A stretch of DNA of 64,000 nt from Leucoraja erinacea. Its lineage: Eukaryota. Within the stretch, counting starts at the first letter, position 1, and each line of letters begins with the position of its first letter. The position numbers were made by a program, and so were the translations under genes. The DNA is taken from positions 49,042,001 to 49,106,000 of the forward strand of contig NC_073389.1 of the NCBI RefSeq assembly GCF_028641065.1, given 5' to 3'. The notes under the pieces were generated by a model. The model was given only the letters and a program-made list of their open reading frames with translations. It was not told the origin of the DNA and ran no database searches. Shown in pieces: positions 22,877-64,000 of this stretch.

Positions 22877-23313
22877 TTACCATGGCTGAACAGTTTTATC
22901 GCTTACATACTGTCCATGTGGACCTTCCGCACCTTCTGGTAGAAGGGCCAAGTAGACCGGGGTCACGGCACCTTCTTCTGCCGTGCCCGGTGCATTAGGA
23001 CCAGCCATGTCGGTTTTCACCCAACCGGGACAACAGGCATTCAGCAGGATCTTGTCCGCTGCTCTCTCCTTACTCAGTCTTCGGGCATGGATCATGGAGA
23101 GGACTGTGACGCCCAGCTTGGTAACCCCGTAGGCCGAGGAAGGCCACCCCTGTTGGGTGTGAGCGCCGTTCTTGGCGTCGTCGACGAACTGCTGCATCAG
23201 CTTCACCAGCTCGTCCTCAGTGATGGATGTACTGCGGAATTTCTTCTGCAGTTCCGGGCTGCACTGATGCAATGCACTGGCTCCACACATGCTGGACACG
23301 TTCACCACTCGCC
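22877..23313 (-). CDS. CBR1: Carbonyl reductase 1-like, copy A, coding exon 2 (437 nt incl. stop)
   Basis: cctgcag|GG acceptor; RVVNVSS, catalytic YGVTK, NACCPGWVKTDMAG; TAA at 22877-22879; AATAAA(-) at 22402-22407 followed by a GT-rich tract. Confidence 0.95.
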
Positions 23314-23390
23314 CTGCAGGTTTAAGAGGACAATTAAAATTGGTTTAACAAACAAAGGGCACCGCAGAGCACGCCACAGCAGTTTTCACC

Positions 23391-23900
23391 TCAAGTCAAG
23401 TCAAGTCAAGTCAAGTTTATTTGTCACATACACATACGAGATGTGCAGTGAAATGAAAGTGGCAATGCTCGCGGAACAACAAAACAACCAAACAAATTCT
23501 AAACACAATCACACATATTATTTTACGTAATAAATAATAGAAGGAAAAACGTTCTGTACAGTTAGTCCCTGGTGAGAAAGGCGTTTACAGTCCGAATTGC
23601 CTCTGGGAAGAAACTCCTTCTCAACCTCTCCGTTCTCACTGCATGGCAACGGAGGCGTTTGCCTGACCACAGCAGCTGGAACAGTCTGTTGCAGGGGTGG
23701 AAGAGGTCTCTCATGATTTTATTTGCTCTGGAGTTGCACCTCTTGTTGTATAGTTCCTGCAGGGGGGTGAGTGAAGTTCCCATAGTGCGTTCGGCCGAAC
23801 GCACTACTCTCTGCAGAGCCTTCTTGTCCTTGGCAGAGCAATTCCCGAACCAGATTGTAATGTTCCCGGACAAGATGCTTTCCACCGCTGCTGCGTAGAA
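23391..23900 (-). mobile_element. Rex1/Babar-type LINE 3' fragment in CBR-A intron
   Basis: ESILSGNITIWFGN..LQRVVRSAE..RLRRSFFPEAIR; (CTTGA)n tail. Confidence 0.8.
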
Positions 23901-24754
23901 GCACTATTCATGTTATGCTCCCTTCCCTTTTCCTGAAAACCATTTCTGCATCGGAGGCATAATTTCAAGTTTACTGTCAAATTCCAGCCATTATGTCTGC
24001 TGATGAACATTAAAAAATCATGTGAAATTTATGGGGCAGACTTTGTTTAGTTTAGTTTAGAGACACAGCGTGGAAATAGGCTCTCGGCCCACCGAGTCCG
24101 CACCGACTAGCGATCCCCATACTCTAACACTATCGCATGCTAACATTATCCCACACACTGGGGTTAATTTACATTTATACCAAGCCAATTAACCTACAAT
24201 CCTGTACGTCTTTGAGATGTGGAAGAAAACTGAAGATATCGGAGTAAAAAAAACCCACGCAAGTCAAGGAGAGAACGTACAAAAAGCCGTGGAGACAAGC
24301 ACCCGTAGTCAGGATCGAACACGGGTCTTTGGCGCCGTAAGTGTATTTCGTTGTCTCTGTACTGTATACTGACAATGACAATTAAAATTGAATCTGAATC
24401 TGTAAGGCAGCAACTCTACCGCTGTACCACCCACTGTGCCTGGGAGACTGAAAATAAATCTTCATCACATCGATTACTTCCAGCAATGTCCACAGCCTGT
24501 AGATCATAGTTCTTCAAGTACAGACCCATGTCCTACCCATGTGAGTTCCATGGTCAGAAAAATGTTTTCTTCACCTCCCCACTAACTCTTCTCCCAATTA
24601 GCGCTCTATCTCTAAACTAAACTAAACCTACCCAAGTGAAATATGAGGGGCTGTTCCTCCAATTTGCACTGGGCCTCACTCTGACAATGGAGGAGGCCCA
24701 GGTCAGAAAGGTCAGATTAAGAATTGGAGGGGGAGTTAAAGTGCTGAGCAATAT

Positions 24755-25230
24755 TCTTAAAGTTCCTGGCGATGTAGATAAAGACATACCAGGAAAATGT
24801 GAGAGAGTGATTTTAGCTAACAAAGATCGCGAAGAAATGGAAAACATAGCTAAAGTTCTCAAAGGTAGTTGTAATGCACAAGATATCGACATGAATATAG
24901 AGTCTGTAGCTTGATTTCGGTATGCACCAGTGACTTCAGCTGAGGTAGAAAGACATTTCTCACAACTGAAGCATATTCTGTCTGACAGGTGGCATAGTTT
25001 AACTGCAGATAATGTGAAAATAGCTAGTAATTATGCGAAACCAGGCAACTTTGGTTATTTAATGTAATATACCTTTATATTATAATTTTTATACATATTT
25101 TGATGGTGGAAATAATTGCCTTTTATGCCTTTTTTGTCAATAAATAACTTTTTCGTGCCTTTTTTGTAATTTTATTATGCCTTTTTGCCTGCCTATTTCA
25201 GACTTTTTTAGTGCCTAAACATCCTGGCTC
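24755..25230 (+). mobile_element. hAT transposase C-terminal relic in CBR-A intron
   Basis: Read-through of a stop gives YAPVTSAEVERHFSQLKHILSDRWHSL (hAT dimerisation-domain signature). Confidence 0.75.
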
Positions 25231-25649
25231 TAGTGATGATCATTTGTGTTCCTGGCCTTTGATCTAACACAATTATGTTGGAGGCTATTGTGAGATTGTA
25301 TTGTATTGTATTGTATATCTTTATTGTCATTTCCTGAGTATTCACATACCCAGAGGAAACAAAAAAACGTTGCTCAACCAGTGTCCATTCAGTGTGCATT
25401 AAAAATAAATAGAAATAAAAATACATATATCATGAACAAATTTAACACTCTACTAAACATCCAAGAGGCGTTCCGATCGGCAGCGGCTCGACAGTGGCTC
25501 TGCTGCAGTGTGTCCAGGTTGGTGGTTAGTGCGCGATACTTTTGGCAGGGGGCAAAGTCCGTTTAGCAGATCTCTGGAGATTAGTGGATATCAACGAAAC
25601 ATAGACTGACTTTTTATATATATTTGAAGGCAGATGTAGATAGATTCTT

Positions 25650-25810
25650 AGGTACACATAAATGCTGGAGAAACTCAGCGGGTGCAGCAGCATCTATGGA
25701 GCGATGGGGATATCTCCTTCGCTCCATAGATGCTGCTGCACCCGCTGAGTTTCTCCAGCATTTTTGTGTACCTTCGATTTTCCAGCATCTGCAGTTCCTA
25801 CTTAAACATA
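25650..25810. mobile_element. Penelope-derived fold-back element (hammerhead core absent)
   Basis: Inverted arms ggtacac..ggagcga / tcgctcc..gtgtacc; near-TSD tagatagattctt / tagatagattatt. Confidence 0.75.
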
Positions 25811-26237
25811 TAGATAGATTATTGATGAGTACAGGTGCCAGGGGTTATGGGGAGAAGGCAGGAAAATGGGGTTAAGAGGGAGAGATAGATCAGCCATGAT
25901 CGAATGGCAGAGTAGTTAGATGGGCCGAATGGCCTACCTCTGCTCCTATTACTTATGAACATGACCGACTGCCCTTCACATGCCATATTAAAAACTCAAT
26001 CCCAGAGCAATCCTGGCCTCAACCTATCAAGGTGTGGACTTTGATCTATCGATTGCTGAACCCAAACTCCCTTCAACTTAAAACCAACTTATTTTTTAAT
26101 TTCCTTCCCAGTACTGATCAAAGGTTTTCGACATGAAACGCTGTCTCTGTTTATCTTTGTACGTATGCCGATGATCTGATGGATGTTTCCAGCGTTTTCT
26201 GTTTTTGTTTCGGATCAGAGCCGCGCTCTCCACTCAC

Positions 26238-26628
26238 CGTGAGGTTTGATGACGGTGAGGAGTTCCGTGCACATATCCCTGGTCGCAAAGAAGTTGGTCG
26301 CCATGGTCACTTCAGCTTGGGTGCCGAACGGGGTGGTGTCGGCATCTTTAAAGGCGATGCCGGCGTTGTTGACGAGGACATCGATGCCTTCGTATTTCTG
26401 CAGCATGAACGCTCGCAGTTTCCGGATACTCTCAAGTTCATCGATGTCGAGCTGGTGGAAGAGCGGCTTCAGCTGCTCCTCTTGCAGCTTCTGCAGCGCC
26501 TGTTGCCCGCGGCCCGCGTTCCGGGCGGTGAGGAACACGTCGCCGTCGAAGTGCCGGCACAGAGCCCGCACCACCTCCAGGCCGATGCCCTTGTTGGAGC
26601 CGCTCACCACCGCCACTCGCTTCGCCAT
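26238..26628 (-). CDS. CBR1: Carbonyl reductase [NADPH] 1-like, copy A, coding exon 1 (391 nt)
   Basis: MAKRVAVVSGSNKGIG (SDR GxxxGxG), NNAG motif, TNFF...IKPHG; ends at G|GTGAGT donor; splices in frame to 22877-23313 to give 275 aa. Confidence 0.95.
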
Positions 26629-26629
26629 G

Positions 26630-26740
26630 TGTGTCCCACTCCGCACTGAGCGGCCGCAAACACCAGCCTTGGAACTTGGAACGCTGCGCATTGGATACAC
26701 TTGGCGGCCAGTGCGCAGGCGCCGCCGCCCACTGTGTCCC
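26630..26740 (-). promoter_or_regulatory. CBR copy A proximal promoter (homologous blocks at 35560-35670 and 42220-42280)
   Basis: cagccttggaac shared by all three copies and ggcggccagtgcgcaggcgccgc by A and B; CCAAT and NRF1-like TGCGCAGGCGC; ETS-like CCGGAAG in B and C. Confidence 0.55.
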
Positions 26741-27299
26741 CGGCTCCCAACGCTGTCCCACGTTTCCAAACACAGGATCTTTGCGCAGGACCACAGTGTA
26801 AGGCCCTCCTGTTGTGGATATCATGGGACAGCTTACGATGGAGACAACCCTCAAACAAGTGACGGGATATTGTGAAAAGAAAGCTTCAAGCTGCCCCAGG
26901 CCACCAGCCTCCTTTCATAGAAACATAGAAAATAGATGCAGGAGTAGGCTATTCGGCCTGCCATTCAATATGATCATGGCTGATCATCCAACTCAGTATC
27001 CTGTACCTGCCCTCTCCATACCCCCTGATCCCTTTAGCCACAAGGGCTACATCTAACTCCCTCTTAAATATAGCCAATGAACTGGCCTCAACTACCTTCT
27101 GTGGCAGAGAATTCCAGAAATTCACCACTTTCATTTTGTCCTATCGAGTCATAGAGTTATATATACAGCGTGGAAGCAGGCCGAAGTTCGGTCCAACTTG
27201 CCCACACCGGCCAAGTTGGGCCAACCATGTCCCAGCTACACCAGTCCCACCTGCCTGCGCTTGGTCCATATCCTTCCAAACCTGTCCTATCCATGGTGT

Positions 27300-28150
27300 A
27301 CAATGGACTTATCCCCAAACTCTATCTCCGTTCCATTGATGACTGCATCAGTGCTACCTCCAGCATCCATGCAGAACTCATGGACTTCATCAACTTCACC
27401 ACCAATTTTGATCCTGCATTCAAATTTACTTGGACCATCTACAACACCTACCGCCCCTTTCTTGATCTCACAGTCACCATCACAGAGAATATTGATCGAT
27501 GTTCTATTACAGACCCACTGACTCCCACACCTTTCTCGACTACACTTCTTCCCACCCTGCTACCTGCAAAGACTCTATCCCCTACTCCCAATTCCTCCGT
27601 CTATGCCACATCGGTACCCAAGATCAGGCATATTAGAACATCCGAGATGTCCTCATTCTTTAGAGAATGGGGGTTCCCCTCAAACATCATAGATGAGGCC
27701 CTCACTCATGTCTCCTCGGCATGCCGCAGCTCTGCCCTTGCTCCCCATAGTCGCAACAGAGACAGAGTCCCCCTAGTCTTTATCTTCCACCCCATCAGCC
27801 GTCGCATACAACACATAATGCCCTGAAATTTCCGCCACCTCCAACGGGATCCCACCACTAGCCACACTTTACCGTCTCCACCCCTTTCCGCCTTCCGCAG
27901 AGACTGTTCCCTCCGCAACTCCCTGGTTAACTCATCCCTTCCCACCCAAACCACCAACTGCCCAGGTACCTTCCACTGCAATACAACACCTGTCTCTAAG
28001 CCTCCTCCCTTGACTCTGTCCAGGGACCGTGACAGTCCTTTCACATTAGGCAGAGATTCACTTGCACCTCCTCCAATCTCATCTACCGTATCCTTTGTAC
28101 AAGATGTGGTCTCTTATACATCGGCGAGACCCAACGCAGACTGGGCGACA
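27300..28150 (+). mobile_element. Penelope-like element relic (RT C-terminal part plus GIY-YIG endonuclease)
   Basis: YLRSIDDC..FTWTI..PFLDL; downstream QRFTCTSSNLIY..C..CGLLYIGET (GIY-YIG); frameshifted. Confidence 0.85.
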
Positions 28151-28950
28151 GTACCTGTCTTAAACGTGGGGATAGTCCCAGCCTCAATTCCTCATACACA
28201 CACCACCTTTTGTGTGAAAAGGTTACCCCTCAGATTCCTATTAAATCTTTTCACCCTCACCTTGAACTTATGTCCTCTGGTTCTTGATTTCCATACTCTG
28301 GGCAAGAGACTCTGTGCATCTACCCAATCTATTCCTCTCATGATTGTGTATACCTTTATCAGATCACCCCTCGTCCTCCTGTGCTCCAAGGAATAGAGAC
28401 CCAGCCGAACCAACCTCTCCCTATAGCTCACACCCTCTAGTCCCGGCAACATCCTCGTAAATCTTCTCTGAACTCTTTCAAGCTTGACAATATCTCCCCT
28501 ATAACTGTGCCCAGAATTGAACACAATATTCTAAATGCAGTCGCATCAGCATCTTATACAACTGCAACATGACCTCCCAACTTCTATACTCTGACTGATG
28601 AAGGCCAATGTGCCAAAACCTTATTTAACTGCGACTCGACCTTCAAGGAACCATGCACCTGTACTCCTAGATCCCTCTGCTCCACAACACCCCCCAGAGG
28701 CCTACCATTCATTCAGTAGGTCCTGCCTTTGTTAGACGTTCCAAAATGCACCACCTCACATTTCTCTGTATTAAATTCCATCAACCATTCCTTAGCCCAC
28801 TTGGCCAATAGATCCAGATCCAGCTGCAATATTTCACAACCATCTTCACTATCTGCAAAACCACCCACTTTTGTGTCATCAGCAAACTTGCTAACCTTGC
28901 CCTGTATGTTCTGATCCACATCATTGATGTAGATGGCAAGCAGTAATGGG
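28150..28950 (-). mobile_element. Degenerate CR1 LINE 3' fragment
   Basis: IYINDVD..SKFADDTK, LERVQRRFTRM, TRGHKFKV. Confidence 0.85.
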
Positions 28951-30228
28951 CCCAGAGTGTTTTTGTTCTTGGATACATTTGGCCCTTCGAGCCAGCACCA
29001 CCATTCAATGCGATCATGGCTGATCAACCACAATCAATATCCCATGTACTGTATCTGTGTGTGACTATATGATTACAATCGAGCCTTTTACAGTGTATAG
29101 ATACCTTCTCAGTTCTCCGACCAGTCTGACTGTCCCTGATTACATTTTATCTGTTTGCTTTATTACCATCTCCGAGCAAACAATGATCTATTCTCATTTT
29201 CCTTGATTGCCACCCCCTTTGGCGTCTCGTTCACACACCTCACACTTCCTTATCTCCTCTCCCCCCTCCCCTCAGTCTGAAGAAGGGTCTCGACCTGAAA
29301 CGTCATCCATTCCTTCTCTCCAGATTGGTTCAAACCAGCATCTGTAGTTCCTTCCTGCACATGATAAGGGAATAATGTTTAGTGCAAGGTAAAGGCAGCA
29401 AAGTCGAATCACCGAGGGTCTCCAATGAGTTAGATAGTAGGTCAGGACTGCTCTCTGGTTGTGGTGGGATGATTCAGTTGCCTGATAACAGCTGGGGAGA
29501 AACTGTTCCTGAATCTGGAGGTGTGCGTTTTCACACTTCTATACCTTTAGCCTGATGGGAGAGGGGAGAATAGGGAGTGGCCAGGGTGCGACTCACACTT
29601 GGTCATGTTGCTGGCCTTGCCGAGGCAGTGTGAGGTGCAAATGGAGTTGGAAGGGAGGTTGGTTTGTGTGATGGTCTGGGCTGTGTCCACAACTCGCTGC
29701 AATTTCTTGCGGTCCTGGATGGAGCTGTTCTCAAACCAAGCTGTGATGCTTCCTGTTAAAATGCTTTCGGTGGTGCATCTACAGAAGTTGGTGAGAGTTG
29801 TAACTTAACACTATATTCTGCAATATTTACTTTCTCTTTTACTGTCATGGTTGTGAATGTTTTGATTGTCCTCATCTACAGTATAATTTACTTCGACACC
29901 ACACAAAATGTTTTTTTCCACTATATCTCAGTACACAGGTCCACACCACAAAGACTGCTCATCAAATAATGAAGGCAGCATTCCCCTGGTCCTCTCCGTC
30001 TAGTGCCCACGAGCACCAATTGATCGCCTCATGCTCTTTTCTCCAGGAAAAACACAAAACGTGGGATCAAGTGATGATCTTTATTGAAAATATTTAAAAT
30101 TCATTACAATTGTTAGATGGAAAAATAACCACAAATTTGCAACATTCAGCATGTCCGAATTAGTACATCAAGAAAAATCTTCTGAAATTTGAACGGGTAT
30201 TTTTAAGGCAGATAGAGATATATTCTTG

Positions 30229-30487
30229 TGTTTAAGAGGGAACTGCAGATGCTGGAGAATCGAAGGTTACACAAAAAAAGCTGGAGAAGCTCAGCGGGTG
30301 CAGCAGCATCTATGGAGCGAAGGAAATAGGCAACGTTTCGGGCCGAAACCCTTCTTCAGACTGATCGGGGGCGCACCCGCCCCCGATCAGTCTGAAGAAG
30401 GGTTTCGGCCCGAAACGTTGCCTATTTCCTTCGCTCCATAGATGCTGCTGCGCCCGCTGAGTTTCTCCAGCTTTTTTTGTGTAACCC
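30229..30487. mobile_element. Penelope-derived fold-back element with hammerhead motifs, 16-bp TSD
   Basis: 109-bp inverted arms 30265-30373 / 30378-30486; TSD tagagatatattcttg at 30213-30228 and 30488-30503; absent from the paralogous site in copy C. Confidence 0.85.
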
Positions 30488-30662
30488 TAGAGATATATTC
30501 TTGATTAGTACGGGTGTCAAGGGTTAGGTGGTGAAGGCAGGTGAATGGGGTTAGGAGGGAAGGATAGATCAGCCATGATGGGCCAAATGGCCCAATTCTG
30601 CTCCTATCACTTATGAACTTTGCTCTTTCCGTTTTGTTACCAATGCCTTGTGCTCTTCCAGC

Positions 30663-31099
30663 TTACCATTCCTGAACAGTTTTTTTGCTCACAAGCTCTC
30701 CATGTGGACCTTCCGCACCTTCTGGTAGAAGAGCCAAGTAGACCGGGGTCACGGCACCTTCTTCTACTGTGCCTGGTGCATTAGGACCAGCCATGTCGGT
30801 TTTCACCCAACCGGGACAACAGGCATTCAGCAGGATCTTGTCCGCAGCTCTCTCCTTACTCAGTCTTCGGGCATGGATCATGGAGAGGACTGTGACGCCG
30901 ATCTTTGAGACCCCGTAGGCCGTGGAAGGCCACCCTTGTTTGGGGTGAACCTCGTTCTTGGCGTCATCGACAAACTTCCTCATCAGCTCCACCAGCTCGT
31001 CCTCGGTGAGTGTAGGACTGCGGAATTTATTTTGGAGTTCCGGGCTGCATTTGAGTAGTGCTACCTTGCTCATGAGGCTGGACACATTCACTACTCTCC
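30663..31099 (-). CDS. CBR1: Carbonyl reductase 1-like, copy B, coding exon 2 (437 nt)
   Basis: ttttgcag|GG acceptor; YGVSK; CCPGWVKTDMAG; AATAAA(-) at 30080-30085 with downstream GT-rich element. Confidence 0.95.
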
Positions 31100-34000
31100 C
31101 TGCAAAAGTAAAAACTAAAACGTTAGGAACAAGAAACGTACACAGAAGTGCATGGGTCATAGAAACAAGGAACTGCTGATGAAAGAAAGAATGAACGATA
31201 CTTCATTGCCACATGTGACAAGTCACCGTGATATTCTTTGTTTTGCGTAACCAAGGTATGCAAAGAGTCGCCACATAAAGGGCACCGACAAAGTTACAAA
31301 GTATTCCAGGCCAGGTCACCCTTTGTTCTCCCACCCCCTCCCCACACAGCAGTTCTCCCACGCCATGTCCCCCTTTTTTCTCCCTTCCCCCCCCCCCCCG
31401 CCATATCTGGAGAAAAGGAATGGGTGAAGAAGGGTCTCAACCCGAAACATCACCCATTCCTTTTCTCTAGAGATGCTATCTGTCCCACTGAGTTACTCCA
31501 GTTTTTTGTACCTATCTTCAGTTTAATAACCATATAACAATTACAGCACGGAAACAGGCCATCTCGGCCCTTCAAGTCCGTGCCGAACACTTATTTTCCC
31601 CTAGTCCCATCTACCTGCACTCAGATCATAACCTTCCATTCCTTTGCCGTCCATATATTTATCCAATTTATTTTTAAATGATAAAATCGAACCTGCCTCC
31701 ACCACTTCCACTGGAAGCTCATTCCACACGGCTACCAATCTCTGAGTAAAGAAGTTCCCCCTCATGTTACCCCTAAACTTCTGTCCCTTAATTCTCAATT
31801 TAAACATTTAAACCAGCATCTGCTTCTTACACAGTATCACACCTCCCTCGGCATCAAAATTCTTGAGATGTTTCTTCAAACGTGGGTGTATTATTGGTAT
31901 TCCATACCACAGTGGCACTGTGTCCCAGCAGGGTTGGTATATTGGAACAAAACGATCAAGGACACCCAAGTGCTAGAGTAACTCAGCGGGTCAGGCAACA
32001 TCTCTGGAGAATGTACATGTGGTGTGCTGAGATGGGTCCCAATCTCCAGATACTGGGACAGTTTCTTCCCGGCTATTGTCAGGCAACTGAATCATCCGAC
32101 ACAACGAGATAGCAGTCCTGAACTACTATCTACCTCATTGGTGACCCTTGGACTATCCTTAATCAGACTTTGCTGGCTTTAACGTTATTCCCTTATCATG
32201 TGTCTCGTGGACAGCGCCTCATGCGAGTGTGGGGACCCAACACAGACAGTGGAGCACATAGTCACCAGTTGCCCCAAACACCAGCCACCGAATGGTGAAC
32301 GAGGTCTGATTGACCTGGGCGATGACACGTTTTCCTGGCTCTCCTCAACGGAGCTGCAGGTCTAAAAGACATACGACAGAAGAAGATGTATTGTCTTTCT
32401 GCTGACTGGTTAGCTCGCAACAAAAGCTTTTCACTGTATCTTGGTACAGGTGACAATAAACTAAACTGAATGAATCACAAACATCACCTATCCATGTTCT
32501 CCAGAGATGCTACCTACGAAGTTTGAAGAAGGGTTTCGACCCAAAACATTGCCTTCGCTCTATAGATTCTGCCTCACCCGCTGAGTTTCGCCAGCATTAT
32601 TGTCTACCTTCAATTTTCCAGCATCTGCAGTTCTTTCTTAAACATGCTACCCTAAGCCAGTAAGTTACGCCAGCACTCTGTGTCCTTCATTTAAACCAGC
32701 ATCTTCAGTTTCTTGATGCTACAAAAATGGTCAATTATTTCCAGGCTTATTTTCCTCAGAAGGCCAGGATCCTTCCCATCAGTTACAAGAAATCTCCATA
32801 GGAGTCAGATAAAATCACAAGTAAAACATTACGTGTGCTGATCCTGGACAAAGCATCGTGATCTCAATACACAGCTCTTCACACAGTTTGCTAAAGGACT
32901 CATCCAGTTTCAACATATCTTCTTCCAAGCAATGCTAGCACAGCACACGATAGTCTCAGTACATTGTGCAACAACTATACATCTGCGTCACATTGCAGTG
33001 CTTGAGAGAAGGCAAGAACTAAATCCAAAACTTAACGACCCTGTTAGTTTAAAATCAGTGGTAAATCACGGATTAGAATTTATAATGAAGCATAAAGTGA
33101 CTGAGCACAAAGGGAAATTTCATCTGATTTAAGAGAGGCAACATGGTTTAGTCTTTGGCGTATGTGAGCTTGCAGAAGGTATTTAATAAGATTCCAAACT
33201 AACAAATACAATCTAAAATGAAAGGACCATGAAATTGAAGGCAAATTATTACACTGCTTGCCATTTGTTATTAGGTTGACGTTTAGGGTAATAGGGTAAT
33301 TGCCTTACTTTCTATCTTGTTTTTTGCCTGAAAATTTAGGTCGCTGTGCTTCACGGTCACCCCGACTAGCACAGAAAATTTCAGCTCAAAAATCAGCCGT
33401 TTTCCATGTTTTTAACGGGCGGGAAAGTGCGCGTTTCCCTAACATGTACCATTCACTAACATGTACCGAAGTGAGATATGTCCTCCAGTTAAAATTTTCG
33501 GTCATGTGAGGAGGGGATCTACGCTCATTTGACATTTGGTGAAATCACCCTATACGTTATCCTGCAGTTTAGTTCAGCTTATTATTAGTACAGTGAAAAG
33601 CTTTTGTTTGTGTGCTATCTAGTCAAAGAAGACTGCAGCACAATGGCAAGTTGCTGTACAGCGTCAGAGACCCGGGTTCGATCCTGACCATGGGTGTTGT
33701 CGGTACGGAGTTTGTACATTCTCCCCGTGACCTTTGTGCGTTTACTCCGGGATCTCCGGTTTCCTCCCACATTCCAAAAACTTACCCCGACTTCCACAAT
33801 TTTTTACAGCGCAAAAATTCATCATTTTGGCGGTTTTTAACGGGTACTCGTTTCGTGTATTAACAACATATACCGGAAGCTGCTATGTCCTCCAGATGGA
33901 TTGAGCGGCTCCGTGCGTCAAGCCCTATAACCCGGTGACCTTACATAGAAACATAGAAATTAGGTGCAGGAGTAGGCCATTCGGCCCTTCGAGCCTGCAC

Positions 34001-35048
34001 CGCCATTCAATATGATCATGGCTGATCATCCAACTCAGTATCCCGTACCTGCCTTCTCTCCATACCCCCTGATCCCCTTAGCCACATCTAACTCCCTTTT
34101 AAATATAGCCAATGAACTGGCCTCAACTACCCTCTGTGGCAGAGAGTTCCAGAGATTCACCACTCTCTGTGTGAAAAAAGTTCTTCTCATCTCGGTTTTA
34201 AAGGATTTCCCCCTTATCCTTAAGCTGTGACCCCTTACGTTCAACCCCCCCCCCCCCCCCCCCCCCCCCATAATGCCAAGTCTCCGCTCTTAATAACTCC
34301 TTGTGCAGCTGTCCTTTTCGAGTTATTGCCATGTTTCCTTCAGCTAGGCAGCGAGAACTGCGCACGGAACTCCCAAAGTGTAGGAAGGAACTGCAGATAC
34401 TGGTTTAAAACGAAGATAGACGCAAATAGCTAGAGTGACTCAGCATCTCGGGAGAAAGGGAACATGTGACATTTCGGTCAGAGCCAGGGAAGAGGGAAAC
34501 GAGAGATATAGACGGTGATACATCTCTCTACCCCTTGACTCAGTCTGAAGAAGGGTCTCGACCCGAAACATGATACGCGGAGTGTGGTCTCACCAACATA
34601 ATGTGCCAAACACCTTCGTCCCTCCTCGTTTACCCGTGTTGCTACAGTCAGCGATCGACACACCTGCCCTCTTACATGTTAATTCAATAACATTCCCCAG
34701 TGCTCTGCCAATTCCCGTGTATATATATTCAATCTCCCAAAATGTAGCACTTCGGATTTGTTACATTCCATCGGCCGCTCCTTTGGCCCACTTTCCAGCT
34801 TGAACTAGATCCGATTGTTATCTTACATAACCTTTCTTCACTGCTCACTTCACCGCCAATGTCGGTGTCATCGACAAGTCTACGACCCAACAAAATTAAT
34901 CATCTAGACTGGAGGCAGAAGTTTGGAGGAAAATGCATAAAATGGCCAAGGGAACGAAAGTATCCTGAAGGGTTCCTAAGGCTCAAAGTAAACCGAGTGC
35001 CTTACAGGGGCAATTAGGGGTTATACGAACGTGCCGCACTCCACTCAC

Positions 35049-35439
35049 CGTGAGGTTTGATGATGGTGAGGAGTTCCGTGCACATATCCCTGGTCGCAAA
35101 GAAGTTGGTCGCCATGGTCACTTCAGCTTGGGTGCCGAACGGGGTGGTGTCGGCATTTTTAAAGGCGATGCCGGCGTTGTTGACCAGAACATCGATGCCT
35201 TCGTATTTCTGCAGCATGAACGCTCGCAGTTCCCGGATACTCTCAAGGTCGTCGATGTCGAGCTGGTGGAAGAGCGGCTTCAGCTGCTCCTCTTGCAGCT
35301 TCAGCAGCGCCTGTTGCCCGCGGCTCGCGTCCCGGGCGGTGAGGAACACGTCGCCGTCGAAATGCCGGCACAGAGACCGCACCACCTCCAGGCCGATGCC
35401 CTTGTTGGAGCCGCTCACGACCGCCACTCGCTTCGCCAT
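35049..35439 (-). CDS. CBR1: Carbonyl reductase 1-like, copy B, coding exon 1 (391 nt)
   Basis: Same SDR N-terminus, exon length and G|GTGAGT donor as copy A. Confidence 0.95.
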
Positions 35440-35704
35440 GTGTAAGAAGGAACTGCAGATGCTGGTTTAAACCGAAGATATACACAAAATGCTGGAGTAC
35501 CTCAACGGGACAGGCTCGCTATAGGATCTATTGGCAGCATCTCTGGAGAGAAGGAATCTCTGCCCCACGCCGCTTCCGGGTACCCGCCGCCCTGCGCTGA
35601 TTGGCTGCAGACAACAGCCTTGGAACGCTGCGCTTTGGATACATTTGGCGGCCAGTGCGCAGGCGCCGCAGTGTAAATATTGACTTCTCTAACTTCAAGC
35701 AACC

Positions 35705-37400
35705 TAGAAACATAGAACATAGAAATTAGGTGCAGGAGTAGGCCATTCGGCCCTTCGAGCCTGCACCGCCATTCAATATGATCATGGCTGATCATCCAAC
35801 TCAGTATCCCGTACCTGCCTTCTCTCCCTGATCCCCTTAGCCACTACCCCCTGATCCCCTTAGCCACAAGGGCCACATCTAACTCCCTCTTAAATATAGC
35901 CAATGAACTGGCCTCAACTACCCTCTGTGGCAGAGAGTTCCAGAGATTCACCACTCTCTGTGTGAAAAAAGTTCTTCTCATCTCGGTTTTAAAGGATTTT
36001 CCCCTTATCCTTAAGCTGTGACCCCTTGTCCTGGACTTCCCTAACATCGGGAACAATCTTCCTGCATCTAGCCTGTCCAACCCCTTAAGAATTTTGTAAG
36101 TTTCTATAAGATCCCCTCTCAATCTTCTAAATTCTAGAGAGTATAAACCAAGTCTATCCAGTCTTTCTTCATAAGACAGTCCTGACATCCCAGGAATCAG
36201 TCTGGTGAACCGTCTCTGCACTCCCTCTATGGCAATAATGTCCTTCCTCAGATTTGGAGACCAAAACTGTACGCAATACTCCAGGTGTGGTCTCACCAAG
36301 ACCCTGTACAACTGCAGTAGAACCTCCCTGCTCCTATACTCAAATCCTTTTGCAATGAAAGCTAACATACCATTCGCTTTCTTTACTGCCTGCTGCACCT
36401 GCATGCCTACCTTCAATGACTGGTGTACCATGACACCCAGGTCTCGCTGCATCTCCCCCTTTCCCAATCGGCCACCATTTAGATAATAGTCTACATTCCC
36501 GTTTTTGCCACCAAAATGGATAACCACACATTTATCCACATTATACTGCATCTGCCAAACATTTGCCCACTCACCCAGCCTATCCAAGTCACCTTGCAGT
36601 CTCCTAGCATCCTCCTCACAGCTAACACTGCCCCCCAGCTTAGTGTCATCCGCAAACTTGGAGATATTGCCTTCAATTCCTTCATCCAGATCATTAATAT
36701 ATATTGTAAATAGCTGGGGTCCCAGTACTGAGCCTTGGGGTACCCCACTAGTCACTGCCTGCCATTGTGAAAAGGACCCGTTTACTCCTACTCTTTGCTT
36801 CCTGTTTGCCAGCCAGTTCTCTATCCACATCAATACTGAACCCCCAATGCCTTGTGCTTTAAGTTTGTATACTAATCTCTTATGTGCGACCTTGTCGAAA
36901 GCCTTCTGGAAGTCCAGATACACCACATCCACTGGTTCTCCCCTATCCACGCTACTAGTTACATCCTCGAAAAATTCTATAAGATTCGTCAGACATGATT
37001 TACCTTTTGTAAATTCATGCTGACTTTGTCCAATGATTTCACCACTTTCCAAATGTGCTGCTATCCCATCTTTAATAACTGACTCTAGCAGTTTCCCCAC
37101 TACCGATGTTATACTAACTGGTCTGTAATTCCCCATTTTCTCTCTCCCTCCCTTCTTAAAAAGTGGGGTTACGTTTGCTACCCGCCAAACTTCAGGAACT
37201 ACTCCAGAATCTAAAGAGTTTTGAAAGATTATTACTAATGCATCCACTATTTCTGGAGCTACTTCCTTAAGTACTCTGGGATGCAACCTATCTGGCCCTG
37301 GTGATTTATCGGCCTTTAATCCATTCAATTTACCCAACACCACTTCCCGGCTAACCTGGATTTCACTCAATTCCTTCAACTCCTTTGACCTGCGGTCCCC
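35705..37400 (-). mobile_element. CR1-clade LINE, 5'-truncated, uninterrupted RT reading frame
   Basis: KSPGPD, NYRPVS, YLDFQKAFD, GVPQGSVLGP, KFADDTK, TRGHSLRI; 3' tail ttctatgtttct. Confidence 0.95.
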
Positions 37401-39200
37401 TGCTCTCTCCTTCCCTCCCCTTCCTACTTCTCCAATCAGTCTGACTGTCCCCTTGATTAAACCTTTGTTGTCATGGAAACAGCAGTCCGAAGAAGGGTCT
37501 CGACCTGAAACGTCACCCATTCCTTCTCTCCAAAGATGCTGCCTGTCCCACTGAGTTATTCCAGCATTTTGTGTCTGCTTCGTTGTCACCCTCTTCTGGC
37601 TAACCATGATCTATTCTTGCCACCACCTCTCCGACCATTCCCGGGCGAACCCAGGCCCGGACCACCGAAAATGCCGCGGCTTCCGACTCTCACTGCCTCA
37701 CTGGGGTCACCATTGTTGTTGCCGACCTTCACAGCCTCCCCAGGGCCTCTACTCCAGCCCCCCACGGGCCTCCACCAACGACTCTGCCGACCCTCACCTC
37801 TCCACCGCCCACCAGCGGGCCAGATCCGTCGCCTCATCTGAGTTCCAGGCTCAGCACCAAACCCACAACCTCCACGAGGCAGACTCCAACACCACGTAGC
37901 CTGACTCTGCTGGGTCCTACTGCTACGCCCCCTCCTAAAGGGAACCTCAGTAGTGATGGATCTTCCCCTTCCCCCTCTTTTAACCAGGTTACCCCGACCA
38001 CACCCCACCCATACAATAGTCCTCATGCCCCCCTCTCTGAACACCCGCCATCCCTCCCCACCAGATTTGGCCTTTGTCGACTCCCCTGACCCCAACCCCC
38101 ACCCTTGTTGTGGCTTCACCATCCCCCCCTGACCTCTCCCCTTCTGATAGGGAACGGTTTGTCCTCAACAGAAGCCTCACCTTCGTTCCCCTCCGCCCCC
38201 ACCTTGACGAGTTCCATGTCCACCACATCATAGAGCTTTTCTTCCTTTGCCCCTGCCTCCGTGCCTTTTTCTACGGGAAGGAGCCCTCACCACCTAGTGA
38301 TGACCTTTTCTCCCGTCTCCACCGATACCCCCCCTCTTGGACTTCCCAGAACGGCCTTCTACCCTCTCTAGACCTCTTTATTTCCAACTGCTGGCGTGAC
38401 ATCAACCGTCTCAACTTTTACACTCCCCTTACCTACTCCAACCTCACCCCCTCTGAACGTACAGCCATCCGCTCACACTGCAGCAACCCTGACATTATAA
38501 TCAAACCCGCCGACAAGGCAGGTGCCGTGGTAGTCTGGTGCGCTGGCCTCTACCGGCAAAGATCTTATAGCGAAGCTATAAGATCTTTGATCTTCGCTAT
38601 AAGATCTTTGTCTACCGGGCCAGGTGACAACTCTCAGGCCAGCACCAGGCCTTAATCTCAAACACCTTTACTGATTTCATCTCTTCTGGCTGTCTGCCTT
38701 CCACAGCCTCCAACCTTACCGTTTCCCGGCCCTGCACAGCCCGTTTTTACCTTCTCCCCAAAATGCACAAACACAACTGCCCTGACAGACTCATTGTTTC
38801 TGCCTGCTCCTGTCCCACAAAAATGATTTCCACATACCTCGACTCCATCCTATCCTCCCTCTCCCGACCTATGTCCAAGATACCTCATATGCCCTTCGTC
38901 TCTTTAATGACTTCTGCTTTCCGAACCCCCACTCCCTCATCTTTACTATGGACGTTCACTCACTCTACACCTCCATCCCCCAACAGGAAATCCTTAAATC
39001 CCTCCGTTTCTTCCTCGACCGCAAAAACCATCCAATTTCCCTCTACTAACACTCTACTCCACCTAGTGGAGCTGGTCCTCACCCACAACAACTTCTCCTT
39101 TGACTTCTCCCACTTCCTCCCAGTCCAAGTCGTAACTATGGGCACTCGCGTGGGCCCCAGCTATGCCTGCCTCTTTGTAGGGTGCTTTGAACAATCCCTG
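37400..39200 (+). mobile_element. Penelope-like element relic (pLTR-like end plus N-terminal RT region)
   Basis: ERFVLNRSLTFVP, SNLTPSERTAI..IIIKPADKAGAVVV, PKMHK..RLIVSACSCPT, ELVLTHNNFSF..MGTRVGPSYACLFVG; frameshifted. Confidence 0.85.
38557..38610. mobile_element. 54-bp micro-MITE with 8-bp TSD
   Basis: TIR caaagatcttatagcgaag/cttcgctataagatctttg; TSD tctaccgg at 38549-38556 and 38611-38618. Confidence 0.8.
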
Positions 39201-40043
39201 TTCCTATTAAATCTTTTCCCTTTCACCTTGAACACATGTCCTCTGATCCTCGACTACGCTACTCTGGACAAGAGTAGACACAGTATGTACGCTGAGAATG
39301 CCGGAAGAGTTTTGCACTGTCCCTTGTTTTGTATATGTGTAAGAAGGAACTGCAGATGCTGGTTTAAATCGAAGATAGACCCGAAAAGCTGGAGTAACTC
39401 AGTGGGACAGCCAGCATATCTGGCGAGAAGGAATGGGGATGACATTTCGGGTCGAGACCCGTCTTCATCCCGCTGAGTTACTCCAGCTTTTTGTGTCTTA
39501 TCTCAGTTTAAACCAGCATCTGCTGTTCCTTCTTACATACTATCCATGTACCCATCTTAAATGTGGAGATAGTCCCAGCCTCAACTACCTCATACACCCA
39601 AGTGAAAAAGTTACCCCTCAGATTTATATAATATCTTTTCTCCTTCATCTTGAACTTATGTCCTCTGGTCTTATCTACAGGAAAAAACACAAAACGTGGG
39701 ATAAAGTGATGATTTTTATTGAAAATATTTAATCTCATCCCAACTGTTAGGTTGAACAATAACCACAAATCTGTAACAATCAGAATGTCTGAGTTAGTAC
39801 ATCAAGAATATTCTTCTGAACTTTGAACGGATACTTTTAAGGCAGAGATAGATAGATTCTTGATTAGTACGGGTGTCAAGGGTTAGGTGGTGAAGGCAGG
39901 AGAATGGGGTTAGGAGGGAAGGATAGATCAGCCATGGTTGAATGGCGGTGAGGACTTGATGAGCCAAATGGCCCAATTCTGCTCATATCATTTATGATCT
40001 TTGGTCTCTCCCTTTTGTTACCAATGCTTTGTGCTCTTCCAGC

Positions 40044-40480
40044 TTACCATTCCTGAACAGTTTTTTTGCTCACAAGCTCTCCATGTGGACCTTCCGCACC
40101 TTCTGGTAGAAGGGCCAAGTAGACCGGGGTCACGGCACCTTCTTCTGCCGTGCCCGGTGCATTAGGACCAGCCATGTCGGTTTTCACCCAACCGGGACAA
40201 CAGGCATTCAGCAGGATCTTGTCCGCCGCTCTCTCCTTACTCAGTTTTCGGGCATGGATCATGGAGAGGACTGTGACGCCGATCTTTGAGACCCCGTAGG
40301 CCGTGGAAGGCCACCCTTGTTTGGGGTGAACCTCGTTCTTGGCGTCATCGACAAACTTCCTCATCAGCACCACCAGCTCGTCCTCAGTGAGTGTAGGACT
40401 GCGGAATTTCTTTTGGAGTTCCAGGCTGCATTTGAGTAGTGCTGCCTTGCTCAAGGTGCTGGACACATTCACCACTCTCC
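40044..40480 (-). CDS. CBR1: Carbonyl reductase 1-like, copy C, coding exon 2 (437 nt)
   Basis: ttttgcag|GG acceptor; YGVSK; CCPGWVKTDMAG; AATAAA(-) at 39715-39720. Confidence 0.95.
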
Positions 40481-54815: not shown

Positions 54816-56096
54816 GATGCCTTTCATTATTCTGTTAGTTTCAATGAGGTCCCCCCCACCCCTTCCCTCCACAAAACCTTCCAAACTCCAGAGGCCCAGT
54901 GATGTCAAGCGCACCACATATGCTAACCCACTCATTCCTGAGATCATTCTTGTAAACCTCCTCTGGACCCTCTCCAGAGCCAGCACGTCCTTCCTCAGTT
55001 ATCCTTGCTTGTAGCAGCATCACAGACAGGGTTGGGTGCAAAACAAATTAATGTTATCTAACCGAAAGATTGGATTTGTGTGTTGGGATTTGGTTTCAAT
55101 CCATTCTTCGTTGGCACTCAGCCTGGCTGTGGAGAGATAAGAGAGGTTAATCGAGTGCTTTCTACACAATGCCTTGAGACGTCAGCTTGTCACTGGGCGA
55201 AATGGATTTTATAATTAAATGTTCATCCCTCTGTCTGTCAGGCCGTTTTGTTTTGTACCCAGCTCTGCTTGTAATGCTGCGGCAAGCAGGATTTTTCCTT
55301 GTACCTGCAACTCACCACACTTGTGCATCTGACTTTAAACTTGACTTGAACAGTTCTGAGACTCTCGAAGCAATTGTTGCAAGCTGTCTCTTGTACCATT
55401 ATCCAAATGGGCTGATTAATTATGGATCCATCTCCAAAATCCTACAAGGCGCCACAGTGGCACAGTTTGTAGAGTCTTGTTTAGTCTTGTTTAGTCTAGT
55501 CTAGTCTAGTCTAGAGATATGGTGTGGAAACAAGCCTTTTGTCCCACCAAGTCTGCACCAACCAGCGATCCCTGCACACTAACACGACACACACTCGGGA
55601 TAATGTACAATGAATCCAAGCCAATTAACCTGTACGTCTTTGTAATGTGGGAGGAAACCAGAGATCCCTGGAGAAAACCCACGCTGGTCAAGGGAGAACG
55701 ATAAACTCCAGACAGACAGCACCCGTAGTCAGGATCGAACCAACGCCAAAGACCCGAGTTCGATCATGACTCTAGAATATCTTTAGAGCTATACAGATAC
55801 AGCCCGGAAACAGGCTCTTCGGCCCACTGTGTCCATGCCAGCCAGCAATCACCCCTACACTAACAATATCCAACACACAAGGGACAATTTACAATTTTTT
55901 TCCAGTAGGTATTTTTTAGGCGCAGATTTACAGATTCTTGATTAGTACGGTTGTCATGGGTGACGGGGAGAAGGCTGGAGAATAGGGTTGAGAGGGAAAG
56001 ATAGATCAGCCATGATTGAATGGCGGAGTAGACTTGATGGGCCAATTGGCCTAATTTTGCTCCTGTCACTTATCAACTTATGAATTTCTTGTTCAG

Positions 56097-58111: not shown

Positions 58112-60996
58112 GTGAGAAGGCAATCCAGTGCTTGTTTAGTTGTTTAGTTTCATGATACAGCGCGGAAACAGGCCCTTCGGCCCACGGAGTCCGCACCGAC
58201 CCAGCGATCCCCACACTACCCAACACACACACACACACACACACACACCAGGGCCAATTTACAATTGCACCGAGCCAATTAGCCTACAAACTGGTGCGTC
58301 TTTGGAGAGGAGTGGGTGGCAACCGAAGATCTCGGAGAAAACCCACACAGGTCATGGGGAGAACATATGAACACAGTACAGGTCATAAGGACAGATGCCA
58401 TAAATGATAGGAGCAGAATTAGGCCAGTCAGCCCATCATGGCTACTCCGCCATTGATTCATGGTTGATCTATCTCTCCCTCCTAACCCTATTAATAATAA
58501 TAATAATAATAATACAATTTATTTGCGGGCGCCTTTCAAAGTCTCAAGGACACCTTACAGAAATTAACAAGAGTAAAAAAACATATAATCGGAGTAAAAT
58601 AAATAATAAAGACATCACCAATACAAAAAATTAAAGACAGAATTCGATCCAAAGACACAAAATCAAAAACACAATGTGAAGAGAGAGCAGCGGCAGCTAA
58701 ACCGCGCCTGCGTACACTCTCCCTTCCGACAGCCATTCTCCTGCCTTCTCCCCATAACCCCTGACACACGTACTAATCAAGAATCTATCTACCTCTGCCT
58801 TAAAAATATCCATTGACTGGGCCTCTACAACCTTCTGTGGCAAAGAATTCCACAAATTCACCACCCTCTGATGAAAGAAATTCCTCCTTATCCCCTTCCT
58901 AAAGGAATGTCCTTTAATTCTGAGGCTATGAGGCACAGACAGGCACCTGTAGTCAGGATCGAACACCAGTCATTGGCACCGTAAGGCAGCAATTTTACCG
59001 CTGCGCCACCGTGTCTTGCCGCACGCTTAAAACGTTCTGAAGAAGGGTCCCGACTCAAAACGTCGCCTATCCATTCCCTCCACAGATGCTGCCTGTTCCG
59101 TTGCATTATCCCAGCACTTGGTGCTGTGCTTAAAATAGATTGTCACACATGGGGCTGAGCAAAGGTCCCTGGTGTATTAAATATTGATGACTGCTATTGA
59201 TAGCTTTCGAATTAAGATCAATGAAAAACACTTTAAAATTGATCTGTCTCTGTAACCTATGGCCCCTTTTATTATTCGGTTCCAGATTTGTGGTTTATAT
59301 TTTCTGCGCATGATACCATGTTAATCCCTCTCTAGTGTATCTGTACACGGTGGACGACTCGAATGTAATCATGTGTTGCCTTTCCACTGAAGATAGATGC
59401 AAAGTACTGGAGTAACTCGGCGGGATAGGCAGCATTTCTGGTGCGAAGGAAAGGGTGACCTTTTGGGTCGAGAGCCTTCTTCAGACTGTGAAAAGCTTTT
59501 ACAATTATACCAAGCCACTTAACCTACAAACTTGTCAGGTCAGGGGAAAGGGAAAACAGAGATAAAGATGGTGATATATAGAGAGAAATATAGAGCAAAG
59601 AAATTAGGGCATTTTGTGTATATCTACGGTGAACACCAGCTCACCTCAAAATCTGCAGTTCCTTCCGACACATTGTCTTTCCACTGATTGGTTAGCATGC
59701 AACAAAAGCTTTTCACTATACTTTGGTACACATAACGATAAACATAGAAACATAGAAAATAGGTGCAGGAGTAGGCCATTCGGCCCTTCGAGCCTGCACC
59801 GCCATACAATATGATCATGGCTGATCATCCAACTCAGTATCCCAATCCCTGCCTTCTCTCCATACCCCCTGATCCCTTAAGCCACAAGGGCCACACCTAA
59901 CTCCCTCTTAAATATAGCCAATGAACTGGCCTCAACTACCTTCTGTGGCAGAGAATTCCACAGATTCAAAGTAAACTAAACTAAACTTATGGGAATAGGC
60001 AACGTTTTGGGTCTTCGGTCTGAAGAAGGTTCTCGACTCGAAACGTCGCCTATTTCCTTCGCTCCATAGATGCTGCCTCACTGGCTGAGTTCCTCCAGCA
60101 ATTTTGTGTACCTTCGATTTTCCAGCAACTGCAGTTCCTTCTTAAACTAAACTTATATTCACTGTTGTGTGTGGCTTCCCCGAGTGGTGTCTAGGAGCGA
60201 AGTTCTTTGAGAGGGGATTTGGCAGTGGTGTATAAAATTGTCCCTTTCTCACATCTGTCCTGATGATGGGGCTTCCACCCCAGTGCCTTTTAAGATGCTG
60301 TGGCGCCATCTGGTGGCCGGGCCACTGGTTAACCGAACCCTCGTTCATCATGTGGTAAGAGACACGTGACTGTTAGATAGGAAGTCGAGGGTGTGTCCTG
60401 CTGCAGCGACATGCAGTAATTCTGGGCTCAGCAACACTGCTATTGTTTCGGAATTATTTTTGTTTAATAAAGCTTGTCCTTGAGTTCACAATGTGTGACT
60501 CGCTTTATTGTGCTTGAATTTTTAATTCATCTTTAGTCAGAGGGTGGTGAATCTGTGGATATCCTTGCCCCAGAACAGGCTGTGGAGGCCAAGTCAGTGG
60601 ATATTTTTTAAGGCAGAGAAAGATAGATTCTTGATTAGTACGGGTGTCAGGAGTTATGGGGAGAAGGCAGGAGAATGGGGTCAGGAGGGAGAGATAGATC
60701 AGCCATGATTGAATGGCAGAGTAGACTTGATGGGCGGAGTGGCCTAATTCTACTATCACTTATGACCTTATGACCTTAATTAATCATGGCTACAGGTTGT
60801 CATGGTTTTCCACTGGTTGTCAGTGCTCTCGACTCTGTTTTCTGTACATTGTTCTCACTTTCTTCTCTTCCCCAGGCGGATTGGTTTCCCGTAATCCTTG
60901 CCATCCAATGTCTGTGATATTTTACATTTCTCTGCACCCCAAACTGTTTACAGATCAGGTTTAACAAACTTGTGTCTTTATTTTTAATGCTTTAAG

Positions 60997-62748: not shown

Positions 62749-62768
62749 TTACACCTGAGCAGGGGCAA

Positions 62769-63080: not shown

Positions 63081-64000
63081 CACGTCCCCCCCCTTTTCTA
63101 GAGATCCTCCCCTTTATTCAGACTCCCAACAAATAACTAAAGCAGAGAGGTTTGGAAAACTGCTCCATGTATAAACATTGAGCTCAAGTCAAAAGTCTGG
63201 ATATATTTAAGGCAGAGATGGATAGATTCTTGATTAGTACGGGTGTCGAGGGTTATGGGGAGAAGGCAGGAGAATGGGGTTGATAGGGAGAGATGGATCA
63301 GCCAATGGCAGAGTAGACTTGATGGGCCGAATAGCCTAATTCTGCTCTTATAACTTATGAACTTGTGATTGTTTCATTGTCATTGATACCAACAGGGTGG
63401 GAGATTGCAACCTTCACGTGGTCCACCCTGTTTCGATTAATGCAATTAACCCGACGTGCACAAACAAATAGAACAAGTTGACCTACAACTTTAGGCTGTG
63501 CACGCCATACGCATGAAGTAGAAGATTTATACCAATAATGGAACAATGCAATTCTTACTTGCAGCAGCATAACAGGCCTGTAAACATAATATTCATGGAA
63601 AGCATATAATAAAACAAAAAAAAAATTAAATAAATTAATAACCCTAACCCTAGTGCAAAAAAGCTCAAAGTCCTTCCTGTAATCGAAGACAGTCCATACT
63701 GTAGTTCAGCACTTCCTGTAGAGCTTGTGTTGGTGGGGAGGTCAGTACCCGTGATGGACCGAGTTTTGACTTTAGTTTAGCGATACTGCGCGGAAACAGG
63801 CCCTTCGACCCACCGAGCCCACACCGACCAGTGATCCCCACACACTAAAGCCATCCTACACGCACCAGGGTCAATTTTTACATTTTTACCAAGCCAATTA
63901 ACCGACAAACCTGTACGTCTTTGGAGTGCGGGAGGAAAAATAGAGATCTCGGAGAAAACCCATGGGGAGAACGTACAAACTCGGTACAGACAAGCACCCG

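Follow-up and report, generated by a model that had tools for sequence, protein, structure and literature searches.

Why do two fold-back insertions in one short stretch of a genome interrupt the same point of the same kind of repeat? The question arises in a 64-kb stretch of the 2.19-Gb genome of Leucoraja erinacea (contig NC_073389.1, 49,042,001-49,106,000), referred to here as the window. The first-pass annotation attributed the pair to a nonautonomous element that is mobilized by Penelope and preferentially targets another repeat family.

Two fold-back inserts in CR1-type 3′ ends

Insert 1 (25650-25808) is a fold-back with its tail at the right and arms that are 95% complementary. The inverted, tail-less arm (25650..25711, minus strand) begins 34 and ends 91 bases from the 3′ end of the element and is followed by the direct arm with a tail of ~35 bases ending in TTAAACA (25712..25808, plus strand), of which the arm proper lies within 25712-25773 and the remainder, up to 25808, is tail. 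The target duplication comprises a 13-bp left copy within the CR1-type 3′ end (25637..25649, plus strand) and a right copy with 1 mismatch (25811..25823, plus strand) that is preceded by 2 extra bases (25809-25810); alternatively, it can be read as 16 bp with 2 mismatches. What remains of the host CR1-type 3′ end is found at 25810..25958 (plus strand; 81% to an empty copy by BLAST).

Insert 2 (30229-30487) is a fold-back in the opposite orientation, with its tail at the left. Its tail-bearing arm (30229..30373, element sense on the minus strand) and its tail-less arm (30378..30487, plus strand, beginning 33 bases from the element 3′ end) each contain a hammerhead-like core, at 30332-30359 and 30392-30419, respectively; such a core is absent from insert 1, the arm of which is too short to contain one. 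The 16-bp target duplication is exact (left copy, 30213..30228; right copy, 30488..30503; both on the plus strand), and the right edge of its left copy is the hot bond, TTG|ATTAG, analyzed below.

The arms are 95-96% complementary across the two inserts, which are 91-93% identical over their overlapping part. Because the arms end at different distances from the element 3′ end, 91-96 bases in insert 1 and 141-143 bases in insert 2, the inserts have different centers. The fold-back arms, tail sides, and arm ends thus bear out what had been read from the sequence in the first pass, namely, one family, opposite orientations, and different centers, and the reported duplications (13 bp with 1 mismatch and 16 bp) also stand, with the 2 extra bases of insert 1 to be added. 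The claim that both duplications begin at one TAG does not hold: relative to AAGGCAGA, the duplication of insert 1 starts at +2 and that of insert 2 at 0, an offset of the two starting TAGs by 2 bases that results from divergence of the host copy of insert 2. The edge common to both duplications is instead the right one, with TT or TTG before ATTAG.

Host motif and gene context

At ≤3 mismatches, the interrupted motif has 7 matches in the window, compared to 0/100 in shuffled sequences. Besides the two filled sites, these are empty CR1-type motifs at 39839..39870, 60610..60633, and 63209..63232 on the plus strand and at 58778..58801 on the minus strand, as well as a further match at 53836 (minus strand) that had escaped the earlier list. 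The four empty copies had been listed in the first pass together with one at about 55921, which is a more diverged CR1-type 3′ end detected by BLAST only (55910..56079, plus strand, 82%). The motif encodes the final codons of a CR1-type open reading frame (ORF), KAEIDRFLISTGVRGYGEKAGEW, and its frame is 50% identical to the terminal part of a LINE ORF with an endonuclease domain (Exo_endo_phos; E = 5e-18); the frame through the empty copy at 58778..58801 likewise reads as the end of a LINE ORF. Both inserts do interrupt the motif, which is the coding end of an ORF rather than an untranslated 3′ tail. Following the first-pass annotation, we provisionally call the host repeat CR1 as opposed to one of its sister clades.

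The region 22880-42045 on the minus strand contains a tandem array of three carbonyl-reductase-like genes, each with two coding exons; their first exons share 94-95% protein identity. Insert 1 sits in the intron of the first of these short-chain dehydrogenase (carbonyl-reductase-like) genes, where it had originally been placed, with exons on either side on the minus strand: the first coding exon at 26239..26628 (Pfam adh_short, E = 1.4e-19) and the other at about 22880-23320. The last exon of the second gene is closely followed by insert 2. The position that corresponds to it behind the third gene, at 39839, is empty, as seen in the alignment with the third gene copy (862-bp block, 92.7%); this paralogous empty site proves the target duplication of insert 2 and shows that insert 2 postdates the gene duplication.

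Several other repeats were observed in the window. An older Penelope-like 3′ end adjoins the start codons of the second and third genes (35439-35560 and 42045-42150, both on the minus strand), where it is now part of the 5′ untranslated or promoter region, and is missing from the first gene (26628). Degenerate coding pieces of other Penelope-like families, with open frames similar to the reverse transcriptase (RT) and linker, occur at 27155-28393 and 37610-39473 (plus strand). A young LINE fragment is present in two 1.57-kb copies in opposite orientation (35708-37273 and 61209-62750, 96.7% identical), and the intron of the third gene contains an AT-rich 79-bp inverted repeat (41401-41588, 89%), possibly a MITE, with weak hairpin matches only in Rfam.

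The inserts are truncated copies of a Penelope-like element

The 18-base 3′ end of the element occurs 25,785 times in the genome as an exact match, in copies that range from ~30 bases to several kilobases. The long copies that terminate in this sequence code for an RT containing the YIDD motif, a CX4CxxC linker (CNRKRCNTC and variants), and a GIY-YIG-like domain. In one of them (L194), a single 417-amino-acid frame runs from the RT motifs, including YIDD, through the nuclease; in another (L261), both domains are present in two frames. The Pfam matches are weak, all below the curated cutoffs (RVT_1, E = 5e-4; GIY-YIG, E = 1.3e-3 and 3.7e-3), and a sequence search of the PDB with the RT-nuclease frame yielded 0 hits at E = 0.1. 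The linker, of the CX2-5CxxC type that Neptune and Nematis both have, is the single feature from which we tentatively label the element Neptune-like.

A sample of 170 distinct 3′ ends was taken with two exact patterns; these were the first listed on contig C1 and thus not randomly drawn from the genome. Of the 170 ends, 88 have a called duplication, 76 of them together with an element-like 5′ end, and the remaining 82/170 have no callable duplication. Fold-backs make up 50 of the 72 sampled inserts that exceed 60 bases, and the inverted arm begins 33-39 bases from the 3′ end in 40 of the 50. Inserts 1 and 2 are therefore ordinary short products of this family; they are copies of an abundant Neptune-like Penelope element that are 5′ truncated and have inverted ends. 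The Penelope origin suggested in the first pass is thereby supported by the coding copies. A separate nonautonomous family is not: lengths and centers differ between copies, the sequence runs without a break into that of the coding copies, and the peaks near 117-132 bases from the 3′ end mark arm ends and not one fixed unit.

The terminal repeat shows the pattern CTGAAGA, hairpin, GAAAC, palindromic ACGT, which is hammerhead-like and fits the description in the accessible text of PMC4209133. An Rfam scan of the window returned generic hairpin matches only, all below the gathering scores, and no hammerhead. Hammerhead cleavage is not supported as the source of the short arms: the arm ends at 117-132 bases lie upstream of or inside the core, and the cut, as placed from the motif, would be expected ~100 bases from the end.

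Two unusual arrangements were also observed. In a complex insertion (L149, G000:C1:9704200-9706400), tandem terminal repeats run past the usual 3′ end, from which it follows that the template continues as CACT after the terminal AAA. At G000:C1:48174358-48174485, the 33-base tail region is present in four tandem copies.

A single-bond hotspot in CR1 ends

To estimate enrichment, the number of junctions expected by chance at each position was calculated by multiplying the number of element ends by the number of anchor copies and dividing the product by two genome lengths. For the antisense anchor, which corresponds to the orientation of insert 2 (16,157 copies), this expectation is 0.095 per position. 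In the antisense window of 31 positions, 22 of the 30 junctions were found at gaps of 8 or 10, which we interpret as a single bond, the two gaps differing in whether 2 bases overlap with the terminal CA of the element; the resulting enrichment is ~230-fold, or ~115-fold if the two gaps are counted as separate bonds. Three more junctions are indel variants (25 in total), and the other 5 are spread over 28 positions, compared to 2.7 expected. For the sense anchor, in the orientation of insert 1 (11,416 copies), 13 of the 19 junctions, including one near-identical pair, fall at gaps of 12-15 (~45-fold). The duplications in both orientations cover the same 13-15 bases. Insertions in either orientation use the same pair of bonds in the CR1 end.

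The 23 inserts for which a duplication was called at the CR1 site all differ from each other (23/23), with lengths of 53-494 bases and two subfamilies represented, and therefore stem from independent events. The two insertions in the window were rightly regarded as independent. The first-pass annotation further held that the preference would fall if genome-wide insertion sites showed no enrichment beyond the abundance of the motif; the genome-wide count gives ~230-fold enrichment beyond that abundance.

CR1 as a family and a hotspot in a SINE

Within CR1 ends, a window ~30-60 bases downstream contains 4 junctions, compared to 7.3 by chance, and a sense window contains 4, compared to 6.5; these two colder windows amount to 0.55-0.6 times chance. 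A third window, downstream and antisense, has 12 junctions, compared to 6.5 by chance. Among the 170 sampled ends, 2 (L056 and L253; 95% interval, 0.14-4.2%) are at the CR1 bond and 4 at the SINE site described below, and ~99% are away from the CR1 bond. The proposed preference for another repeat family is hence valid for a single CR1 position and fails for CR1 as a whole, in which neighboring windows are at or below chance and which is surpassed by a SINE. CR1 is not targeted family-wide.

A secondary hotspot was noticed ~70 bases downstream within the CR1 end (loci L269-L279), where one bond with a poor half-site match accounts for 6 of 12 junctions (~29-fold); the duplications there are 15-16 bp long and start with CA.

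The SINE (L267) contains a hotspot that is used in two orientations (67 + 57 junctions) and is stronger than that of the CR1 end. In the first orientation, 51 of the 67 junctions are at gaps of 8 or 10, compared to 0.176 expected per position (~290-fold); the gaps were counted by hand from the listed coordinates. Nine of the 67 loci were fetched, 8 of which have a called duplication; the insert lengths are 48-773 bases, and two loci form a near-identical pair. In L265-L267, motifs resembling A and B boxes were spotted by eye in the head of the SINE, which accordingly appears tRNA-like. We presume that this SINE is V-SINE/HE1, a label for which no confirmation was found in the literature. Two candidate explanations for the use of both repeats were rejected. 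A long motif common to the CR1 and SINE sites does not exist, with ≤5 bases shared; and RNA-guided or self-homology targeting is contradicted by the longest matches between site and element, 8 and 11 bases, compared to a shuffle mean of ~9.

A short, roughly symmetric site at both nicks

In the unselected sites, each edge of the duplication is flanked on its outer side by the half-site (TG)|NTT(G/T)(G/T), and the two half-sites are 14-15 bases apart. On the nicked strand, the nick is directly followed by NTT(G/T)(G/T) in 16/71 sites at the tail end and in 12/71 at the other end, compared to 1.7 expected. The duplications were called at maximal length, which can make them one base too long; 47/76 measure 14-15 bp, and 27/76 begin with CA. 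A plain matrix was trained on the 71 sites, among which there are none of the six hotspot loci and no duplications shorter than 12 or longer than 17 bp; the first 78 Mb of one contig supplied most of them. Non-hotspot fold-backs found with a flank-bearing query of the genome were included, and the CR1-site match (L017) and repeat-site matches (L002, L007, and L015) from that query were excluded from both the training and the unselected count.

Although trained without the hotspots, the matrix places held-out true sites at the median 97.7th percentile, and its peak coincides with the observed bond in three hot windows: CR1 antisense (56-fold), CR1 sense (17-fold), and SINE (93-fold). A control window scored 0.41 of chance. 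A pooled half-site model with shifts was dropped in favor of the plain matrix: it drifted, with its peak one base off, and ranked worse, with the marked bond 3rd to 13th.

Three predictions of the matrix were fixed before searching. For the opposite orientation of the SINE, 49 junctions were predicted and 9.6 expected by chance, and 57 were seen, 47 of them at gaps of 16-20, around the predicted bonds; this prediction was not fully blind, with three such insertions known beforehand, and the counts and arithmetic were done by hand. For the CR1 downstream antisense window, 8.7 junctions were predicted and 12 seen, but the predicted peaks received 2, 1, 0, and about 1, and 6 of the 12 fell on a bond that the matrix scored at 1.1-fold. 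For the CR1 window predicted to be coldest, 0.9 junctions were predicted and 4 seen, compared to 6.5 by chance. The matrix also underpredicts the hot windows ~3- to 6-fold (9.1 versus 30, 2.9 versus 18, and 25.7 versus 67), and the left half of the CR1 site is a poor fit to the motif. Sequence preference near the nick accounts for the positions of the hotspots but not for all of their size, to which other determinants contribute. In searches of the open literature at the level of listings and abstract openings, neither a symmetric extended site nor hotspots of Penelope in CR1 or SINEs came up.

Proposed mechanism and alternative explanations

The inserts are truncated, inverted-end copies of a Neptune-like element, and the CR1 bond is a true base-level hotspot, which likely reflects a preference of the GIY-YIG nuclease for a short, roughly symmetric site. 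The observations behind this reading are the half-sites at both edges, the narrow stagger, the use of one site in either orientation, the even more frequent use of a SINE position that also has a matching half-site, and the fixed start of the inverted arm. The CR1 bond and the SINE spot would match the preferred site by happenstance, without any seeking of CR1, and would become visible as hotspots because CR1 ends and the SINE are each present in tens of thousands of copies, with one good site apiece. At such a site, the protein, probably a dimer, would nick both strands 14-15 bases apart, leaving two 3′ overhangs. One overhang would prime reverse transcription at the end of the RNA tail, often with TG or G pairing with CA or CAC of the template, and the other would prime at a second site on the RNA, 33-39 bases upstream. 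Joining of the two cDNAs head to head would then produce a fold-back with a one-sided tail, a target duplication, and a center specific to each copy.

It is an evenly balanced question whether this scheme extends to Neptune-type proteins at large, which may be sequence-selective dimeric cutters that recognize paired inverted half-sites, make a concerted break of 14-15 bases, and prime from both ends on one RNA. If so, one step would explain the inverted ends, the one-sided tail, and the duplication of the whole class, and Penelope elements would be double-primed integrators with predictable hotspots in other high-copy repeats.

The lengths of the two arms are correlated: they agree within 5 bases in 19 of the 50 fold-backs, compared to 7.7 expected, an excess inflated by 6 fold-backs centered on a natural hairpin, and 5 long arm pairs agree within 40 bases, compared to 0.3 in permutations. 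Even when long, both arms of one insert were often seen to stop near the same template position, for example, at 414/412, 190/192, and 494/478. This correlation counts against two independent cDNAs unless the template end is common to both. It follows that either both ends copy one RNA or a rival explanation stays in play, in which the nuclease prefers the same site but only one of the nicked ends serves as a primer; the cDNA, or else an antisense template, would fold back on itself to prime the inverted arm (snap-back), and the other strand would be cut later. We regard snap-back as unlikely. The correlation, long arms included, speaks for it, as do the 6/50 fold-backs whose center is the natural hairpin at 117 bases; moreover, in the accessible text of PMC3846280, palindromes at inverted junctions are read as self-priming, and that of PMC8557442 places second-strand cleavage after reverse transcription. 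However, snap-back is hard to reconcile with an inverted arm that has a fixed internal start and no copy of the tail (40/50), with the many inserts that are strongly asymmetric in both directions (-303 to +266 bases), and with a second nick that has the same half-site at narrow spacing, and the Anolis protein extends both strands according to the accessible text of PMC11167929.

Compared with double priming at a short symmetric site, it appears improbable that an extended sequence or structure of CR1 ends and, separately, of the SINE is recognized, as in target-specific LINEs, with the short motif being part of it. Such recognition could explain why the enrichment (~230- and 290-fold) exceeds that given by the matrix (56- and 93-fold) and why there is one unpredicted peak within the CR1 end. 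Nevertheless, few sampled ends are at these sites (2/170 at the CR1 bond and 4/170 at the SINE), the two sites share no run of >5 bases, their similarity to the element is no greater than that of shuffles, and insertions in the other windows of CR1 do not exceed chance.

Later copying of filled CR1 ends, by CR1 retrotransposition, gene conversion, or segmental duplication, is very improbable as the source of the hotspot. It could account for a few near-identical pairs (L048/L049 and L285/L286), but the 23/23 different inserts span 53-494 bases, both orientations, two subfamilies, and different centers, and insert 2 has an empty paralogue; the spread of one filled CR1 copy was rejected on the grounds of this diversity. 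Finally, chance coincidence without preference, conceivable for two repeats that are each present in tens of thousands of copies and whose genomic regions could overlap, is refuted to near certainty by 22 junctions on one bond, compared to 0.19 expected for the two spellings (Poisson P of about 1e-37), with neighboring positions in the same copies near expectation.

Comparison with known systems

The element and its layout are already known in kind, whereas the target rule was not found in the literature searched. As described in the accessible text of PMC8557442, the Neptune and Nematis clades have a CX2-5CxxC linker between the RT and GIY-YIG, and Penelope-like elements (PLEs) show an inverted truncated copy with a 30- to 40-bp tail; that of PMC3846280 gives the same layout with duplications of 8-10 bp. 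The element analyzed here shares with the EN+ Neptune and Nematis PLEs covered there the RT followed by a C-terminal GIY-YIG, the CX2-5CxxC linker, and frequent 5′ truncation; the inverted 5′-truncated copy, the one-sided 30- to 40-bp tail, and the duplication around the whole unit; and possibly, judging by its sequence pattern, the hammerhead-like motif in the terminal repeat. For EN+ PLEs, the accessible parts of both papers describe a moderate preference or one for microsatellite or AT-rich sequence and variable duplication lengths that result from a late second nick. By contrast, the element here makes narrow 14- to 15-bp duplications, has the same half-site at both nicks, and shows 200- to 300-fold enrichment at single bonds.

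The closest experimental counterpart is PAc, a Poseidon-clade element of Anolis carolinensis, which, per the accessible text of PMC11167929, cuts and extends both strands in vitro with a preference for 5′-ATT-3′, has two internal RT start sites that delimit the tail, and is predicted to form a dimer. At both hot sites here, ATT likewise stands directly after one nick. PAc was assayed on its own junction, and the accessible text reports no primer-template homology, whereas pairings of 1-2 bases (TG with CA) are frequent for the element here; the main text of PMC11167929 gives no nick spacing, extended symmetric site, or hotspots in other repeats. In their accessible portions, both PMC8557442 and PMC11167929 name the origin of Penelope inverted ends and tails as open. 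The animal non-LTR retrozymes, as far as described in the accessible text of bioRxiv 10.64898/2026.07.22.740005, resemble the inserts in being short, noncoding, and Penelope related; they have a type I hammerhead, to which the hammerhead-like pattern of the element may correspond. However, those retrozymes form discrete families, often in tandem arrays, whereas the inserts here form a continuum of lengths, have a head-to-head arrangement, and end in the same 3′ sequence as the coding copies, and insert 1 has no hammerhead core.

Tens of thousands of copies thus provide a cut-site rule in vivo, with a half-site at both nicks and a fixed stagger, together with two natural best targets, and the rule and targets are usable directly in the published in vitro assay. 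Insertions of these elements at the same position of CR1 or SINE copies are no evidence of common ancestry or of family-specific targeting.

Target-specific retroelements such as R2 insert time and again, in independent events, at a single bond of a multicopy sequence, as is the case here. So do the rDNA-targeting spike-moss PLE-X families (accessible text of PMC8557442). These elements insert almost only at their target, whereas ~1% of the sampled copies of the element here are at the CR1 bond, and instead of most copies lying at one target, as in the target-specific class, 2/170 ends were found at the CR1 site and 4/170 at the SINE. Furthermore, unlike R2 and PLE-X, the element here uses both orientations and unrelated sequences by the same rule.
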